Below the pieces are notes generated by a model, which had not been told where the DNA came from, made no database searches, and worked only from the letters and a program-made list of their open reading frames with translations. Made by a program: the position numbers and the translations under genes. A DNA stretch of 64,000 bases, from NCBI GenBank assembly GCA_017676145.1, contig GCA_017676145.1_3628.1; one strand, given 5' to 3'. Position 1 is the stretch's first letter. Every line of letters starts with the position of its first letter. This document shows, piece after piece, positions 44,018-52,464 of the stretch. The stretch is from a phage.

Positions 44018-44995
44018 TTATTTGTTAGATTCTGCACGTGCACGAGCAAGTGCTTTTGCAACGTTTTCAGCAAGAATTTCTTCTGCGGATTTTGCAATAT
44101 CATCCACAACAGGTTCGCCATCATTACCATGTTCAGTGGTGGCAAACTCTTCTTTAGTTTTATGCACCTCTGCTTCCAGCTCTTCAATTTTTGCTTGAGC
44201 TTTCTCCAGCATAGCTACGATAGGTTCGTTAGCTTTCTCCAGCATGAAGTCAACCAGGGTTGCGTGATCTTCTTCACCAACAAAGCTTAAAGCTTGAGCC
44301 TTAGTCAGCATTTTAGCTTTTTCAACTTCAACCTGGGCCTTGATGATTTCTTCAGCTTTACTCTGGGTTGCTTTCAGCTCTTCTACTTGCTTCAGCAGAT
44401 CCAGATACTCTTTAGTTTTGGTTACGTCCACCGGATTCTCCTCGGTATTTGCGGATTTTGCAACATCATCCACCTCGGTAGTTTTATCCACCTCAGTAGG
44501 TTCCTGTACCGCCTTGATCAGGTTCCCTTCTTTATCGAAGAGATCAGCGGTTACTTGTTCAAAAATCTGTTGTGTTTTTAGCAGGCTGTACTGATCTACC
44601 ACACTAAGCTGCTTGCCTTCTTTTGCAGCTTTATGAATGGTCACGTTATCACAACGCTCTTCCAGCCATGAAATACAAGACTCTGCGTCAGCTTGCGCCC
44701 ATTCCCAATCAGGATGCTCTTTAGCCCAAGCTTCCTCTTCAATCTCAAAACCAAGCATGTGTGCAAGTGCTTTGGCATCATCATACCACATATCGAAGAA
44801 ACGACGCAGGTATTCTTCAAAACTAAGCTCCACAGTAACTTGGCGAAGTGCCTTAACAATATCTTCTGTTAACTGCTCAGGCTGAAGATCACTCTTCATC
44901 AAAAGAGATACAGGTCTGTTGTTAGCGCTATAGCCTTGAGCCTTATGGCACAGGGCAATCCCCTTCTCTTTAATAGTAATCGTTTTTTCAGACAT
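44018..44995 (-). CDS. scaffolding protein (putative)
   Basis: 325 aa, highly acidic, Glu/Lys/Ala-rich coiled-coil composition; position after portal. Confidence 0.55.
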   Translation of the reverse strand: MSEKTITIKEKGIALCHKAQGYSANNRPVSLLMKSDLQPEQLTEDIVKALRQVTVELSFEEYLRRFFDMWYDDAKALAHMLGFEIEEEAWAKEHPDWEWAQADAESCISWLEERCDNVTIHKAAKEGKQLSVVDQYSLLKTQQIFEQVTADLFDKEGNLIKAVQEPTEVDKTTEVDDVAKSANTEENPVDVTKTKEYLDLLKQVEELKATQSKAEEIIKAQVEVEKAKMLTKAQALSFVGEEDHATLVDFMLEKANEPIVAMLEKAQAKIEELEAEVHKTKEEFATTEHGNDGEPVVDDIAKSAEEILAENVAKALARARAESNK

Positions 44996-49241: not shown

Positions 49242-49560
49242 CGTTTATGTTCAGGCAAGGTCGCTAGTCTTGCCCCGCCATTTTCAGGCAGCTGCATGTC
49301 TCCATGCAGACCAGACTATATCTTATAAGCTATAACAACAGCTTACCCTCCCGTTTCGAATCGCTTGATTCTACGTCTTTCGACTAGTCGTTGAACGTTC
49401 ATCCTCTCGGATGCTTCGCTGCGGATTATCTAAATCAACACTCTGTTACCATACCTTCGATCTCTCTTCGAAGCCTCTATTATGTTACCATAACAGGTTG
49501 GTGGTGTTAATAATAAAGATTTCCCCGCAATTAGGGAGGTTTTACGAGAGCTACAAATTA
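49242..49560 (-). mobile_element. group I intron 1 in terminase large subunit gene (no ORF)
   Basis: Minus-strand P AATTGCGGGGAA (49521-49532), Q AATCCGCAGC (49418-49427), R GTTCAACGACTA (49385-49396), S GATATAGTC (49316-49324); exon ends GGT followed by TAA, as in T4 td-type introns. Confidence 0.75.
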
Positions 49561-49986
49561 ACCCTCATCGAAGCAAACCATGGTGTACTCAAGCCCTTGA
49601 TGGTTAAGCTTATCTTGGACATACTCCATGTGGCAGTATTTTACAACGGCCCCTTTTTTGCTCCTGTCCCACTTGCCAGTGCTCGGATCAAACCGTGGAA
49701 AAATAAACTTATGATCCTTCTCTCTGAACTTTGGTTTAATGTTTTCAGGCAGATCACTGTAAATAGCTACTGCTTTAGGCCATAGACCTCCTTCACCCTC
49801 CAGCTGCGGGGTTGTTCTTCGGAACATAACCACAGAGCTGTGTGGGTCATCAATAATTTTAAGTGGCATTAGCTGCAAGAGGAACGACTTGCCAGAACCG
49901 GCTGCACCTCCGATCACCAAAATATCTGCATCGTTCTCAAGGATCATCTTCTGCTTTTCAGAACACGGTCCGTAAATCTTAGACAT
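49561..49986 (-). CDS. terminase large subunit, exon 1 (ATPase domain)
   Basis: Walker A GGAAGSGKS and Walker B MVCFDEG; start ATG overlaps the o-spanin stop (TAATG). Confidence 0.75.
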
Positions 49987-50773: not shown

Positions 50774-51043
50774 TTATCGAGGCACTCGGTGGATGATTCT
50801 GACAGTAACTGCATTCTCATTCATCAAGTATGCATCCACATCTCTGTAAATATAAAACTTCTGCTCGCTATCAACAACACAAGCCACTGCCCCTTCAGAG
50901 TTGTCTTCAAAGAAGACCACAACTGCATCGCAGCTTAGTTCATGATACGACTCTCGAAGATTTACAGCAAGAGGGTTGAAATCGTCACGAAAATCTACAG
51001 TATGGGTTGGATTTACACGTTCTACAATTTTAAGTGTATACAT
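50774..51043 (-). CDS. hypothetical protein (89 aa)
   Basis: ORF downstream of tRNA array with AAGGAA RBS. Confidence 0.45.
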   Translation of the reverse strand: MYTLKIVERVNPTHTVDFRDDFNPLAVNLRESYHELSCDAVVVFFEDNSEGAVACVVDSEQKFYIYRDVDAYLMNENAVTVRIIHRVPR

Positions 51044-51089
51044 TTTAAAGGTTCCTTTTGTGTGTATATATTTAAAGTATAACTAAAGG

Positions 51090-51166
51090 TGGTCTCCACG
51101 GAGTGATTCGAACACTCGACCTCCTGATCCCAAATCAGGCGCTCTACCAAGCTGAGCTACGCGGAG
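51090..51166 (-). tRNA. tRNA-Pro (anticodon UGG)
   Basis: Manual cloverleaf: acceptor CTCCGCG/CGTGGAG (C1-G72), D-arm GCTC/GAGC, anticodon loop TTTGGGA, T-arm GAGTG-TTCGAAT-CACTC, encoded CCA. Confidence 0.8.
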
Positions 51167-51177
51167 TATTTATAATT

Positions 51178-51252
51178 TGGTGGCCCTGGGTGGAATTGAA
51201 CCACCGTCTGGCGATTATGAGTCGCTTGCTTGAACCTTCCAGCTACAGGGCC
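51178..51252 (-). tRNA. tRNA-Met (anticodon CAU; elongator Met or Ile2 type cannot be distinguished)
   Basis: Manual fold: acceptor GGCCCTG/CAGGGCC, anticodon loop CTCATAA, T-arm GGTGG-TTCAATT-CCACC, encoded CCA. Confidence 0.75.
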
Positions 51253-51253
51253 A

Positions 51254-51329
51254 TGGTGCTGATGGCAGGACTTGAACCTGCAACCTATTGATTACAAATC
51301 AATTGCACTACCGATTGTGCTACATCAGC
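51254..51329 (-). tRNA. tRNA-Thr (anticodon UGU)
   Basis: Manual fold: acceptor GCTGATG/CATCAGC, D-arm GCAC/GTGC, anticodon stem ATTGA/TCAAT with loop TTTGTAA, T-arm GCAGG-TTCAAGT-CCTGC, encoded CCA. Confidence 0.8.
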
Positions 51330-51335
51330 AAAAAG

Positions 51336-51440
51336 GTGCTAGGTGATGGAATCGAACCACCTATGTATTCAACGACTACCTCGTCTATTTTCAGGATTAA
51401 AAATCCTCGCCCTTGCCAAAGGGCTTACCTAGCGCAATAT
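51336..51440 (-). ncRNA. tRNA-like element, non-canonical (pseudo-tRNA or small stable RNA)
   Basis: Has 7-bp acceptor-like stem GCTAGGT/ACCTAGC, D-like arm GCCC/GGGC and T-arm GGTGG-TTCGATT-CCATC, but no 7-nt anticodon loop and ~30 nt extra between anticodon-like and T arms; CCA not fully encoded. Confidence 0.35.
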
Positions 51441-51531
51441 GTTGACCATGTGGCTAGTCGGCGATGACGACTGTAACATTTGATAATCCGGTTCTGCTTC
51501 CGGCTTTCGCTTAATTACAAGGTCAACAATG

Positions 51532-51622
51532 TGGCGGAGAGTAATGGAATCGAACCATCATCGAGTCATCCTCAACGGGACGGTTTTCAAGACCGCTTGA
51601 GCACCATTGCTCCCTACCCTCC
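51532..51622 (-). tRNA. tRNA-Ser (anticodon UGA), type II with long variable arm
   Basis: Acceptor GGAGGGT/ACTCTCC, anticodon arm GCGGT-CTTGAAA-ACCGT nearly identical to E. coli tRNA-Ser(UGA) as recalled, ~20-nt variable arm, discriminator G, encoded CCA. Confidence 0.75.
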
Positions 51623-51736
51623 TTTATAAATTACACTGATAATGACACTGATTTTCGAGCAGTTAGTGACTAGTATAAACGACGATAAATATCAATGCCA
51701 TTATCTGTATGATTTATGCATTTAAAAATATAAATT

Positions 51737-51824
51737 TGGTGGTGAGTGATGGAGTCGAACCACCCGAATCGCAATGATAACAGATTTACAGTCTGCCCCG
51801 CTACCCCTACGGAATTAACTCACC
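51737..51824 (-). tRNA. tRNA-Tyr (anticodon GUA), type II
   Basis: Acceptor GGTGAGT/ACTCACC, anticodon stem CAGA/TCTG with loop CTGTAAA, long variable arm, T-arm GGTGG-TTCGACT-CCATC, encoded CCA. Confidence 0.75.
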
Positions 51825-51954
51825 TAAATACTAATATTTAAATTCTTTTTAAAATAGCTAGTGTTCTCACCACTAACTATGAGGTATCGGTAAAGTGGTT
51901 ACCGCCACTTGCCGAAGATTTACTCTGCTAAAGTAAGCTACATTAAAAAGAACT

Positions 51955-52029
51955 TGGCACCCCGTACTGGACTCGAACCAGTGTCAACGGCTTAGAAGGC
52001 CGCTGCTTTATCCACTAAGCTAACAGGGC
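51955..52029 (-). tRNA. tRNA-Arg (anticodon UCU)
   Basis: Acceptor GCCCTGT/ACGGGGT (two G-U pairs), D-arm GCTT/AAGC, anticodon stem GCGGC/GCCGT with loop CTTCTAA, T-arm ACTGG-TTCGAGT-CCAGT, encoded CCA. Confidence 0.7.
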
Positions 52030-52087
52030 ACTGGGTGGCTTTCTTTTACACCTGAGCCGCCAGAAAAGGTGGGAGACCATGTTTACA

Positions 52088-52116
52088 ATATTACACTGTT
52101 AAGCAAAGTTTGTCAA
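52088..52116 (-). promoter_or_regulatory. sigma70-like promoter for the tRNA array (TTGACA-17-TAATAT)
   Basis: On minus strand TTGACAaactttgcttaacagtgTAATAT, ~55 nt upstream of the first tRNA 5' end. Confidence 0.55.
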
Positions 52117-52125
52117 GAAAATATT

Positions 52126-52464
52126 TTAACTATTGCCAACAGGCTGTATCTCTGTGGTAAATGGCATAAAAGGTGCTGGTTTTTCAGCCTCTTCTACTAC
52201 CACCTCTTCCTCTTCACCAAACATCTCATCATATTCTTCCTGCATTCGGTCTGCCTTATCAAGGACATACTCTGCAATGCTTTGACGAATATTTTGCTTG
52301 GTTTTCGGATCCAACATCAGCTCTCTTAAAACTTTGTGAGCTTCTGGAACCATCGCTATAAAAGATTCCTTCATATCAAGAATGTTCTTCTCTAGCTGAA
52401 TGGCGTTGGACTCCTCTTTCAGAGGTCTGCCTCTACGGCGACGCTTTTTAGTTGTATCCGCCAT
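52126..52464 (-). CDS. basic/acidic bipartite protein with AT-hook-like KKRRRRGRP motif (112 aa)
   Basis: ATG at 52464 with GGAGG RBS preferred over the listed 52584 start; highly acidic C-terminus; directly upstream of the tRNA array. Confidence 0.5.
   Translation of the reverse strand: MADTTKKRRRRGRPLKEESNAIQLEKNILDMKESFIAMVPEAHKVLRELMLDPKTKQNIRQSIAEYVLDKADRMQEEYDEMFGEEEEVVVEEAEKPAPFMPFTTEIQPVGNS

Follow-up and report, generated by a model that had tools for sequence, protein, structure and literature searches.

Phage tRNA arrays can hold structured sequence that is not standard tRNA. Does such sequence encode RNAs of its own, or is it spacer and worn-out tRNA? We addressed this question in a 64,000-nucleotide stretch of phage DNA (GenBank assembly GCA_017676145.1, contig GCA_017676145.1_3628.1), hereafter the window, in which two structured segments lie between tRNA-Ser and tRNA-Thr at positions 51,336 to 51,531. 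An earlier note, made from the letters alone, had described one segment as a tRNA-like unit with its anticodon arm replaced by hairpins and the other as a hairpin-rich unit with complementary ends; it had offered processed small stable RNAs, nuclease decoys, or a degenerate or interrupted tRNA as explanations. Both segments exist where the note had placed them, and both lie on the minus strand, as do the tRNAs. We refer to them as element 1 and element 2. The surrounding 1.15 kb is 98-99% identical by BLAST to many Vequintavirus (rV5-like) coliphage genomes, and by this measure the window is a Vequintavirus genome. Our analysis argues, with moderate confidence, that the two elements are independent structured RNA genes that are maintained by selection, co-transcribed with the tRNA operon and processed to stable RNAs, and that element 1 is a tRNA mimic that does not decode.

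Element 1 belongs to a family of tRNA-shaped RNAs

Read 5' to 3', element 1 is GCUAGGU AA GCCCUU-UGGC-AAGGGC G AGGAU-UUUUA-AUCCU GAAAAUA GACGA-GGUAG-UCGUU GAAUACAUA GGUGG-UUCGAUU-CCAUC ACCUAGC A CCU. The parts listed in the earlier note (a 7-bp acceptor stem, a D-like arm, a T arm, pentaloop hairpins and extra nucleotides) are all borne out by the sequence and by its predicted fold, which has a minimum free energy (MFE) of -34.2 kcal/mol and a z score of -4.5; none of 200 shuffled sequences (0/200) equals it. A single nucleotide (G) separates the D arm from the anticodon-position hairpin. Linker sequence between and around the two hairpins comes to ~16 nt, within a variable region of 31 nt in total. 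The claim that the anticodon arm is replaced holds in part: two hairpins are indeed present, but the first stands in the place of the anticodon arm and, drawn with a 4-bp stem, displays a 7-nt loop, UUUUUAA. The Rfam tRNA alignment draws the same 4-bp stem and loop, with a 26-nt insertion; the predicted fold shuts the loop to 3-5 nt. Since A73 is followed by CCU, CCA is not encoded by element 1 here.

By BLAST, element 1 has orthologues in Avunavirus and in Seunavirus. Searching again with the Seunavirus copy brought in Mydovirus, Henunavirus, further Seunavirus hosts and a single Schitoviridae phage (Salmonella UTK0002), and a third round yielded a Justusliebigvirus member. Comparison with the arrays of related phages, as the earlier note had proposed, thus reveals a conserved family that always resides within a tRNA array, with one copy per locus searched. 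A conserved 22-mer of element 1 is not matched exactly in any of 185,579 bacterial and archaeal genomes (one genome per species), and we accordingly found the family in phage sequence only. We detected no conserved partner open reading frame (ORF) or RNA beside element 1: the ~190-nt region downstream is not conserved in other genera, and the flanks in the Schitoviridae phage contain short ORFs only, none annotated as a gene.

The structure of the family is preserved through compensatory change. In a MAFFT alignment of 12 sequences (A4; five Vequintavirinae genera and the Schitoviridae phage), pairing holds in 99.3% of cells and 11 of 24 pairs show compensatory change on both sides, a result reached by 0 of 500 shuffles; sliding the 3' partners by 1-3 columns lowers pairing to 34-47%. 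A covariance model built from this alignment (R1) scores family members at 76-124 bits, the copy in the window at 99.8 bits, and ordinary tRNAs at no more than 31.5 bits. When the set was enlarged to 31 distinct sequences by a metagenome pattern scan (alignment A7), 98.7% of cells paired and 13 of 24 pairs were compensatory. Across these 31 sequences the acceptor stem pairs in 100% of cells (5/7 pairs compensatory), the T stem is 5 bp in all members with all cells paired, and the D stem has compensatory changes in three of its six pairs. D-loop position 19 and T-loop position 56 form a tertiary pair that covaries without exception: 21 sequences have G:C and the other 10 have U:A. This covariation indicates that the L-shaped elbow, and not just the secondary structure, is maintained. 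Because the stems and the 19:56 pair covary across genera and phage families, we conclude that the structure of element 1 is under selection. For the same reason the suggestion of a degenerate or interrupted tRNA is unsupported; no intron-like insertion is evident.

In the anticodon half, the anticodon-position stem covaries, and its loop is genus-specific in both length and sequence. The extra hairpin is present in all members (15-24 nt, covarying, of at least three designs, longer or different in some genera); its ACGA/UCGU pairing in the window becomes ACGG/CCGU in Avunavirus, a compensatory change. The linkers that flank it, GAAAA(A)UA on the 5' side and (R)AAUACAUA on the 3' side, are invariant across genera in the BLAST-collected set save for GUAAAA in the Schitoviridae phage, and are slightly different in Justusliebigvirus, the later-found member of which has the 3' linker AAAUACGAAA.

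A terminator scan flags two parts of element 1: the T arm with the 3' strand of the acceptor (51363-51340), followed by GCACCUUUUU, and the D arm (51424-51409), followed by GAGGAUUUUU. The U run after element 1 stands where other genera have CCA-AAA, and partial termination ahead of tRNA-Thr is possible.

Decoding is not conserved in the family

ARAGORN reports element 1 as 'tRNA-??? (atcc)', with a 4-base anticodon and no anticodon assigned, and the Rfam tRNA model (RF00005) gives it 35.5 bits (gathering score 29); under gathering as well as permissive thresholds, Rfam yields weak tRNA and tRNA-Sec matches only. The statement that these segments are not standard tRNAs stands: no tool resolves a conventional tRNA, including in the ARAGORN check that the earlier note had called for, and orthologues of element 1 differ in loop size (5-8 nt), loop sequence and discriminator. 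Avunavirus and Seunavirus members receive no ARAGORN call, and Seunavirus members have no Rfam tRNA match at E <= 0.1. Readings as a transfer-messenger RNA (tmRNA) or as a YrlA/Y-RNA were dropped on the ARAGORN and Rfam scans. ARAGORN finds no tmRNA in the window, and the sole tmRNA-type match in a permissive Rfam scan (17.4 bits) is elsewhere in the array.

Public records are correspondingly inconsistent. Element 1 is labelled tRNA-Lys, tRNA-OTHER, tRNA-TERM or tRNA-???(atcc), or carries no feature; BASEL-collection records give it as a 97-nt tRNA-Lys recognising AAA, and an Erwinia phage record labels a member with the CAUCAAA loop tRNA-TERM. Family members are mostly unannotated or lie under spurious small coding sequences. 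The genome paper on rV5 reports six tRNAs and leaves element 1 unmentioned (PMC3606486). We found no description of either element in Rfam 15 or in the literature searched (for the core sequence of element 2, for Vequintavirinae tRNA-like RNAs and for phage tRNA-like decoys), and the element 1 family appears to be undescribed in both.

The family is canonical in its 7/5 acceptor-T branch, its T loop (U54 U55 C56 R57 A58) and its elbow. It departs from tRNA in having A at position 8 in all members, rather than U8, and a D arm of 6 bp with a 4-nt loop, rather than a 3-4-bp stem with a 7-11-nt loop. The conserved 5-bp anticodon stem with a 7-nt loop bearing U33 and a purine at 37 is absent from the orthologues. 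Loops across the family are 5-8 nt on stems of 4 or 5 bp, and most 7-nt loops have A33. The loop CAUCAAA (4-bp stem; A33, 'UCA') is found in Henunavirus, Justusliebigvirus, the Schitoviridae phage and many metagenome contigs; CAUCCA (5-bp stem) in Seunavirus and Mydovirus; UUUUUAA (4-bp stem) in Vequintavirus; UUUAUAA in Avunavirus; and GUGAUA in one metagenome contig. Members have U, A or C as the discriminator, and most genera encode U73 followed by CCA. UUU together with A73 is seen in Vequintavirus only; Avunavirus has UAU with C or U73, and the genera with CAUCCA or CAUCAAA have U73. Given that loop length and sequence change between genera, often with A33, a conserved decoding function is ruled out.

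The U33/UUU/A37 anticodon loop and A73 are identity elements of the E. coli lysyl-tRNA synthetase (LysRS). The Vequintavirus loop offers U33, UUU and A37 alongside A73, which explains the tRNA-Lys labels in GenBank. Every Vequintavirus copy examined has this same loop, while variation is seen at A9, in the loop of the extra hairpin, at a T-stem pair and at the last pair of the acceptor.

Element 2 is a helix-enclosed module shared with lambda and P7

The complementary ends that the earlier note had seen in the second segment do pair, UGUUGACC with GGUCAACA, and they enclose a core whose conservation extends well beyond Vequintavirus. The core matches lambda 44866-44934 at 85.5% identity and P7 72367-72434 at 88%, and it is also found in D6, many lambdoid prophages, P1-like plasmids and the Salmonella siphophage ST1UNAM. 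Element 2 lies directly 3' of the tRNA-Ser CCA both in the window and in P7, where the tRNA-Ser(UGA) is unannotated and near-identical to that of the window; this shared arrangement indicates that tRNA-Ser(UGA) and element 2 travel together. In lambdoid phages the core lies on the late-transcript strand, ~110 nt downstream of tR' and ~250 nt upstream of S, and ARAGORN detects no tRNA in the lambda locus or in three fetched prophage loci. The same Q-to-S interval is occupied by ileZ, argN and argO in phage 933W. We considered a link between element 2 and these Stx-phage tRNAs and rejected it: 933W has neither the core nor the CACAAC/GUUGUG helices described below.

The flanks of the core are not homologous between five contexts (the window, a divergent Vequintavirus designated L012, lambda, P7 and ST1UNAM), and in every one a closing helix lies 0-6 nt from the core. 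MAFFT left these helices out of register, and each was therefore assessed by folding and shuffling its own sequence. An equally long helix arises in shuffled flanks at frequencies of 0.09, 0.05, 0.055, <0.0002 and 0.0002, in the order given above. The helix in the window is weak evidence on its own (fold z -1.8 to -2.7; 450 of 5000 shuffles as long). In four other genomes, however, the same core also sits within a helix, one whose sequence differs, and the closing helix is thus a conserved feature. G.U pairs in the P7 helix fit the tRNA-sense strand.

Within the core, the stem of the CCGG hairpin is invariant and its loop is identical throughout save for one G-to-A change in ST1UNAM (AAACAGAA), so this hairpin is uninformative on covariation. 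The second hairpin contains a U:A pair that is G:C in lambda, P7 and ST1UNAM, a compensatory change; its register is uncertain because one lambdoid variant breaks that pair.

Two other roles for element 2 were considered and rejected. A 24-codon frame occurs in P7 and some prophages, and it is not conserved, since its AUG start reads AAG in the window and AUA in lambda, and the second frame is shifted by a 1-nt indel. As for an intrinsic terminator, the terminator scan gives no terminator-like site in 51440-51528, and the closing helix is followed by AUAUUGC. A permissive Rfam scan of 51000-52150 returned nothing over 51440-51531 at E <= 10, and the lambda copy of the core matched nothing in Rfam at E <= 0.1. 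On the comparative evidence, element 2 is a real helix-enclosed RNA module and is not tRNA-like.

The earlier note had paired the two segments, but they are independent modules: most genera have element 1 and lack element 2, and lambda, P7 and a Salmonella siphophage have element 2 and lack element 1.

The loci that carry element 2 contain further structured sequence. In lambda (L005, 44266-45534), P7 (L006) and ST1UNAM (L042, 700-1560) we observed repeated long helices, CACAAC-A-GGUAAGAGCA ... UGCUCUU(U/A)CC-GUUGUG, with a different insert in each. ST1UNAM has a tRNA-like remnant with the T arm GCAGG-UUCGAUU-CCUGU and no ARAGORN call, and P7 has an STnc100-like sequence (Rfam 43 bits, threshold 47) after its copy of element 2.

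The tRNA operon and its other modules

The order of the operon in the RNA is Arg, Tyr, Ser, element 2, element 1, Thr, Met, Pro (Table 1). A promoter-like site and a terminator-like hairpin bracket the array, and the former is annotated as a promoter in phage ECML-10. All six ordinary tRNAs of the array (6/6) encode CCA. The tRNA arrays of Vequintavirus-type phages are mosaic, and HNH or homing endonucleases adjoin element 1 in some genomes.

Table 1. Features of the tRNA operon in the window, of elements 1 and 2, and closing helices of element 2 in other genomes
Feature	Positions	Strand	Sequence or remark
Promoter-like site	52116-52088	minus	sigma-70 type, TTGACA-17-TAATAT; upstream of whole array
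tRNA-Arg(UCU)	52029-51955	minus	
Insert	51954-51825	minus	130 nt; between tRNA-Arg and tRNA-Tyr
tRNA-Tyr(GUA)	51824-51740	minus	found by Rfam (39 bits), not by ARAGORN; annotated in relatives
Hairpin spacer	51739-51623	minus	117 nt; between tRNA-Tyr and tRNA-Ser
tRNA-Ser(UGA)	51622-51532	minus	ARAGORN; directly upstream of element 2
Element 2	51528-51440	minus	closing helix and 68-nt conserved core with two small hairpins
Element 2, closing helix	51528-51521 with 51447-51440	minus	UGUUGACC / GGUCAACA
Element 2, conserved core	51516-51449	minus	68 nt, AAUUAAGCGAA...AGCC
Element 2, first core hairpin	51503-51488	minus	CCGG-AAGCAGAA-CCGG; stem invariant in all contexts
Element 2, second core hairpin	51472-51456	minus	(A)GUCG-UCAUCGC-CGAC(U); U:A here, G:C in lambda, P7 and ST1UNAM
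Element 1	51433-51334	minus	tRNA-shaped RNA, ~97 nt and CCU; member of the model R1 family
Element 1, acceptor stem	51433-51427 with 51344-51338	minus	7 bp, GCUAGGU/ACCUAGC
Element 1, D arm	51424-51409	minus	GCCCUU-UGGC-AAGGGC; 6-bp stem, 4-nt loop, tRNA-Sec-like; preceded by A8 and A9
Element 1, anticodon-arm equivalent	51407-51393	minus	AGGA(U)-UUUUA-(A)UCCU; 5 bp and 5-nt loop, or 4 bp and 7-nt UUUUUAA
Element 1, 5' linker	51392-51386	minus	GAAAAUA; GAAAA part near-invariant in family, one member GUAAAA
Element 1, extra (variable-region) hairpin	51385-51371	minus	GACGA-GGUAG-UCGUU
Element 1, 3' linker	51370-51362	minus	GAAUACAUA; AAUACAUA part invariant in all BLAST-collected members
Element 1, T arm	51361-51345	minus	GGUGG-UUCGAUU-CCAUC
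Element 1, discriminator and 3' end	51337-51334	minus	A73, then CCU; read from sequence
tRNA-Thr	51329-51254	minus	followed by tRNA-Met/Ile(CAU), then tRNA-Pro
Terminator-like hairpin	50708-50695	minus	terminator scan
Closing helix, divergent Vequintavirus L012			GAGGAUCAU / GUGAUCCUU
Closing helix, lambda			GUUGUGCUG / CAGCACAAC
Closing helix, P7			UAAGAGUAUUUGGCU / AGCCAAGUGCUCUUA
Closing helix, ST1UNAM			AAGAGCAUUUAGCU / AGCUGAGUGCUCUU, extended by CACAAC / GUUGUG

The spacers of the array are structured as well. The 117-nt spacer at 51623-51739 forms a near-perfect hairpin of ~25 bp (MFE -26.1 kcal/mol, z = -4.5, 0/200 shuffles), a helix of RNase III type. The 130-nt insert at 51825-51954, which is missing from many Vequintavirus genomes, folds into several hairpins enclosed by an 11-bp helix (GUUCUUUUUAA/UUAAAAAGAAU; z = -3.4). 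It has homologues of 115-130 nt and 73-88% identity in Phapecoctavirus, Justusliebigvirus, T5-like Demerecviridae, Salmonella SP1a and a Pseudomonas phage, and it matches no Rfam family. It is a probable third mobile module of structured RNA in phage tRNA arrays.

The tRNA-Ser(UGA) at 51532-51622 (P7 copy: L006 1092-1178) is also atypical, since its sequence permits an 8-bp acceptor and a 4-bp T stem. The Rfam tRNA-Sec model gives it 41.5 bits (threshold 47), and the tRNA model misses it. In these respects it is similar to the (8/4) tRNA-Ser that has been reported in phages (Mukai et al. 2017, PMC5389517).

A group I intron (RF00028, 85.2 bits, matching the full-length model) lies ~1.5 kb from the array, at 49292-49570 on the minus strand. 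Finally, ~19 GenBank records named 'Campylobacter phage' (MG0656xx; e.g. C15, C7, A12a; 135-143 kb; host Campylobacter jejuni) are 97-99% identical to E. coli Vequintavirus here, which suggests that they may be mislabelled or contaminant genomes.

Proposed mechanism and alternative explanations

We envision that a single operon transcript, running from the promoter at ~52116 to the terminator at ~50700, carries both elements. Because the acceptor/T/elbow half that RNase P reads is intact, RNase P would be expected to cut at the 5' end of element 1 (51433). The 3' end would then be trimmed, possibly with addition of CCA, and an L-shaped RNA of ~97 nt would accumulate stably. The rebuilt anticodon half would be the working surface of this RNA, with element 1 most likely bound as a tRNA look-alike by a putative tRNA-recognising factor; that this half is rebuilt, with a genus-variable loop, argues that element 1 is not an ordinary decoder across the family. 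In Vequintavirus, the change from the widespread CAUCAAA/U73 to UUUUUAA and A73 may imitate tRNA-Lys(UUU), and we infer from the family comparison that these Lys-like features reflect mimicry rather than decoding. More speculatively, an irregular A-rich helix can be drawn from the invariant linkers, with two A-U pairs amid A.A and A.G oppositions; such a helix would lengthen the extra arm into a long rigid protrusion suited to recognition by protein. Element 2, in this view, moves between phage tRNA and late-leader regions with tRNA-Ser(UGA), and it could be a released small RNA or could act in cis on the maturation or stability of the transcript. Among the explanations in the earlier note, processed small stable RNAs is thus the best supported; the operon context, the tRNA-like acceptor/T/elbow of element 1 and the closing helices of element 2 point to processing and stability. 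A role as a nuclease decoy is possible by analogy.

Several points weigh against two selected RNA genes that are processed in this manner. The encoded CCA has been lost in Vequintavirus (ACCU here, ACAU in L012), which may reflect a relaxed need for a tRNA-like 3' end. Alignment A7 was fitted to R1 and hence leans towards the structure, although the independent MAFFT alignment agrees with it. Its metagenome members were picked by a pattern containing AUACAUAGG, and the invariance of that linker in A7 is therefore partly circular; the BLAST-collected set is unaffected. The inner hairpins of the element 2 core give little covariation, one being invariant and the other showing one compensatory pair and one variant that breaks it. 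Moreover, the closing helices of P7 and ST1UNAM are related to each other, and those of the window and lambda partly so; the helices thus amount to ~3 independent versions and not five.

Three other explanations merit consideration. Element 1 could be a working tRNA-Lys(UUU) with an oversized variable arm, charged by LysRS and reading AAA and AAG, perhaps as a PrrC- or PARIS-resistant surrogate. The BASEL annotation, the canonical 7/5 acceptor branch and T loop, and the 4-bp stem that presents UUUUUAA, with U33, UUU at 34-36 and A37, together with A73, are all consistent with such a tRNA. It would also account for the joint change of loop and discriminator in Vequintavirus, and for a loop that stays constant in all copies examined of this genus as other positions vary. 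Yet the anticodon stem is just 4 bp and the predicted fold closes the loop to 3-5 nt; position 8 is A, and the 31-nt variable region has long unpaired linkers; CCA is unencoded, unlike in all six neighbouring tRNAs; and ARAGORN assigns no anticodon. Decoding is, furthermore, not conserved: the sister genus Avunavirus carries UAU and, as discriminator, C or U, and the loops of other genera are non-decoding. We consider a working tRNA-Lys improbable.

Similarly, we assign a low probability to the idea that both elements are punctuation acting only in cis, with element 1 as an RNase P entry point, element 2 and the hairpin spacers as sites for RNase III or RNase E, and the excised pieces functionless. 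In T4, RNase P matures the precursors from the tRNA cluster, and RNase III cuts species 1 RNA. All spacers of the array are strongly structured, the 117-nt hairpin and the 130-nt insert included, and element 2 directly follows the tRNA-Ser CCA in both the window and P7. An RNase P handle, however, needs no invariant linkers, covarying extra hairpin or conserved genus-specific loop, and RNase P determinants are already present in the adjacent tRNAs. Lambda conserves the core of element 2 with no ARAGORN tRNA nearby. It is more doubtful still that the elements are decaying remnants (a tRNA pseudogene and a hitch-hiking spacer) that are functionless at the RNA level, or recombination or homing-endonuclease sites that act at the DNA level. 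The mosaic arrays, the neighbouring HNH and homing endonucleases and the loss of CCA from the Vequintavirus copy would suit decay, and element 2 may simply have been co-transferred with tRNA-Ser, the lambda copy without a recognised tRNA being a leftover. A pseudogene, by contrast, would not keep 13 of 24 covarying pairs and a covarying tertiary pair, with no broken stems, across distant phage groups. The closing helices of element 2 have been re-created with different sequences in separate contexts, and their G.U pairs favour one RNA strand.

If the two elements are indeed selected RNA genes and element 1 a non-decoding mimic, one could envision a more specific role. Element 1 might define an undescribed class of trans-acting tRNA mimic with a Sec-like body, an intact acceptor/T/elbow and a genus-tunable anticodon half, acting as an inhibitor of, or a decoy for, anticodon nucleases and other tRNA-sensing defences, or else as a surrogate that resists cleavage. 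The form in Vequintavirus would imitate tRNA-Lys(UUU), the target of PrrC and PARIS, the CAUCAAA/U73 forms would imitate an opal-reading tRNA, and element 2 would be a functional small RNA that has gone unnoticed in the late leader of lambda. A decoy or surrogate role for element 1 is plausible by analogy; the full scenario is tentative and, in our estimation, rather unlikely.

Significance

Phage tRNA arrays are now read as counters to tRNA-cleaving immunity, and counts of their content cover canonical tRNAs only. Element 1 is present in all sampled genera of Vequintavirinae and in at least one Justusliebigvirus. Many therapy phages and phages of the BASEL collection belong to these groups, and annotation pipelines miss the element or label it inconsistently (Lys, TERM, OTHER, '???'). 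Should element 1 be a mimic and not a decoder, it would be a new kind of player in the conflict over tRNA immunity and would offer a tractable present-day parallel to the species 1 and 2 RNAs of T4. The genus-specific loops and their matching discriminator changes provide direct hypotheses as to which host factor each version addresses. The element 2 module sits in lambda between tR' and S, and we found no described function for it in the literature searched. On a practical note, 'tRNA-Lys' labels in Vequintavirus genomes call for caution in analyses of codon usage and tRNA complement.

Comparison with known systems

Element 1 resembles class II (long-arm) tRNAs (RF00005) in its 7/5 acceptor-T branch, its T loop UUCGAUU, its covarying 19:56 elbow and its extra arm. 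Unlike these tRNAs, it has A8, a 6-bp/4-nt D arm, a 4-bp 'anticodon' stem with an unconserved loop and a 31-nt variable region with invariant unpaired linkers, and in Vequintavirus its CCA is unencoded. The 6-bp D stem with a 4-nt loop and the long extra arm are instead reminiscent of tRNA-Sec (RF01852), and the widespread CAUCAAA form carries UCA at the anticodon position as well as U73. The Rfam tRNA-Sec model scores family members at 23.7-37.6 bits against a gathering threshold of 47, the best being the Erwinia phage member at 37.6. The discriminator, however, is A or mostly U and not G73, position 33 of the widespread form is A and not U, the extra arm is set off by 7-10-nt linkers, and the copy in the window has UUU and not UCA. 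Above all, the acceptor-T branch is 7/5 and not 8/5 (13 bp), and the family is therefore not tRNA-Sec. U73 with GCA or UCA anticodons has been described for selC* tRNA-Cys, and allo-tRNAs are defined by an 8/4 or 9/3 acceptor/T configuration (Mukai et al. 2017, PMC5389517). We rejected allo-tRNA identity for element 1, which has neither configuration: the T stem is 5 bp in all members, and an eighth acceptor pair is impossible with A8 opposite C65.

tRNA-Lys is the classical target of PrrC and PARIS. In phage T5, tRNA-Lys counters PARIS (PMC11464382) and tRNA-Tyr counters the retron Ec78 (PMC11555353), and phage tRNAs with variant anticodon loops evade tRNA-targeting defences (PMC10264068). 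One preprint describes Vequintavirus phages as sensitive to one variant of the anticodon nuclease ApeA. Like these replacement tRNAs, element 1 is an RNA of a phage array, with a loop resembling that of tRNA-Lys(UUU) in Vequintavirus. Replacement tRNAs are canonical and decode, whereas element 1 is structurally aberrant and its orthologues lack a common anticodon.

The species 1 and 2 RNAs of T4 (rnaC and rnaD) offer another comparison. They are 139 and 119 nt long, and rnaC lacks a full cloverleaf, whereas element 1 has four arms and an extra one; rnaC nonetheless carries a tRNA-type T arm, CCGGG-UUCGAAU-CCCGG, near its 3' end. We looked for homology and rejected it: with filters off, R1 scores 7.5 bits over rnaC in the T4 tRNA region and finds nothing over rnaD. 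To our knowledge, the function of the species 1 and 2 RNAs has gone unexplained for ~50 years. As small stable RNAs in a coliphage tRNA cluster, encoded directly after a tRNA and on the tRNA strand, they would by analogy be the closest precedent for both elements.

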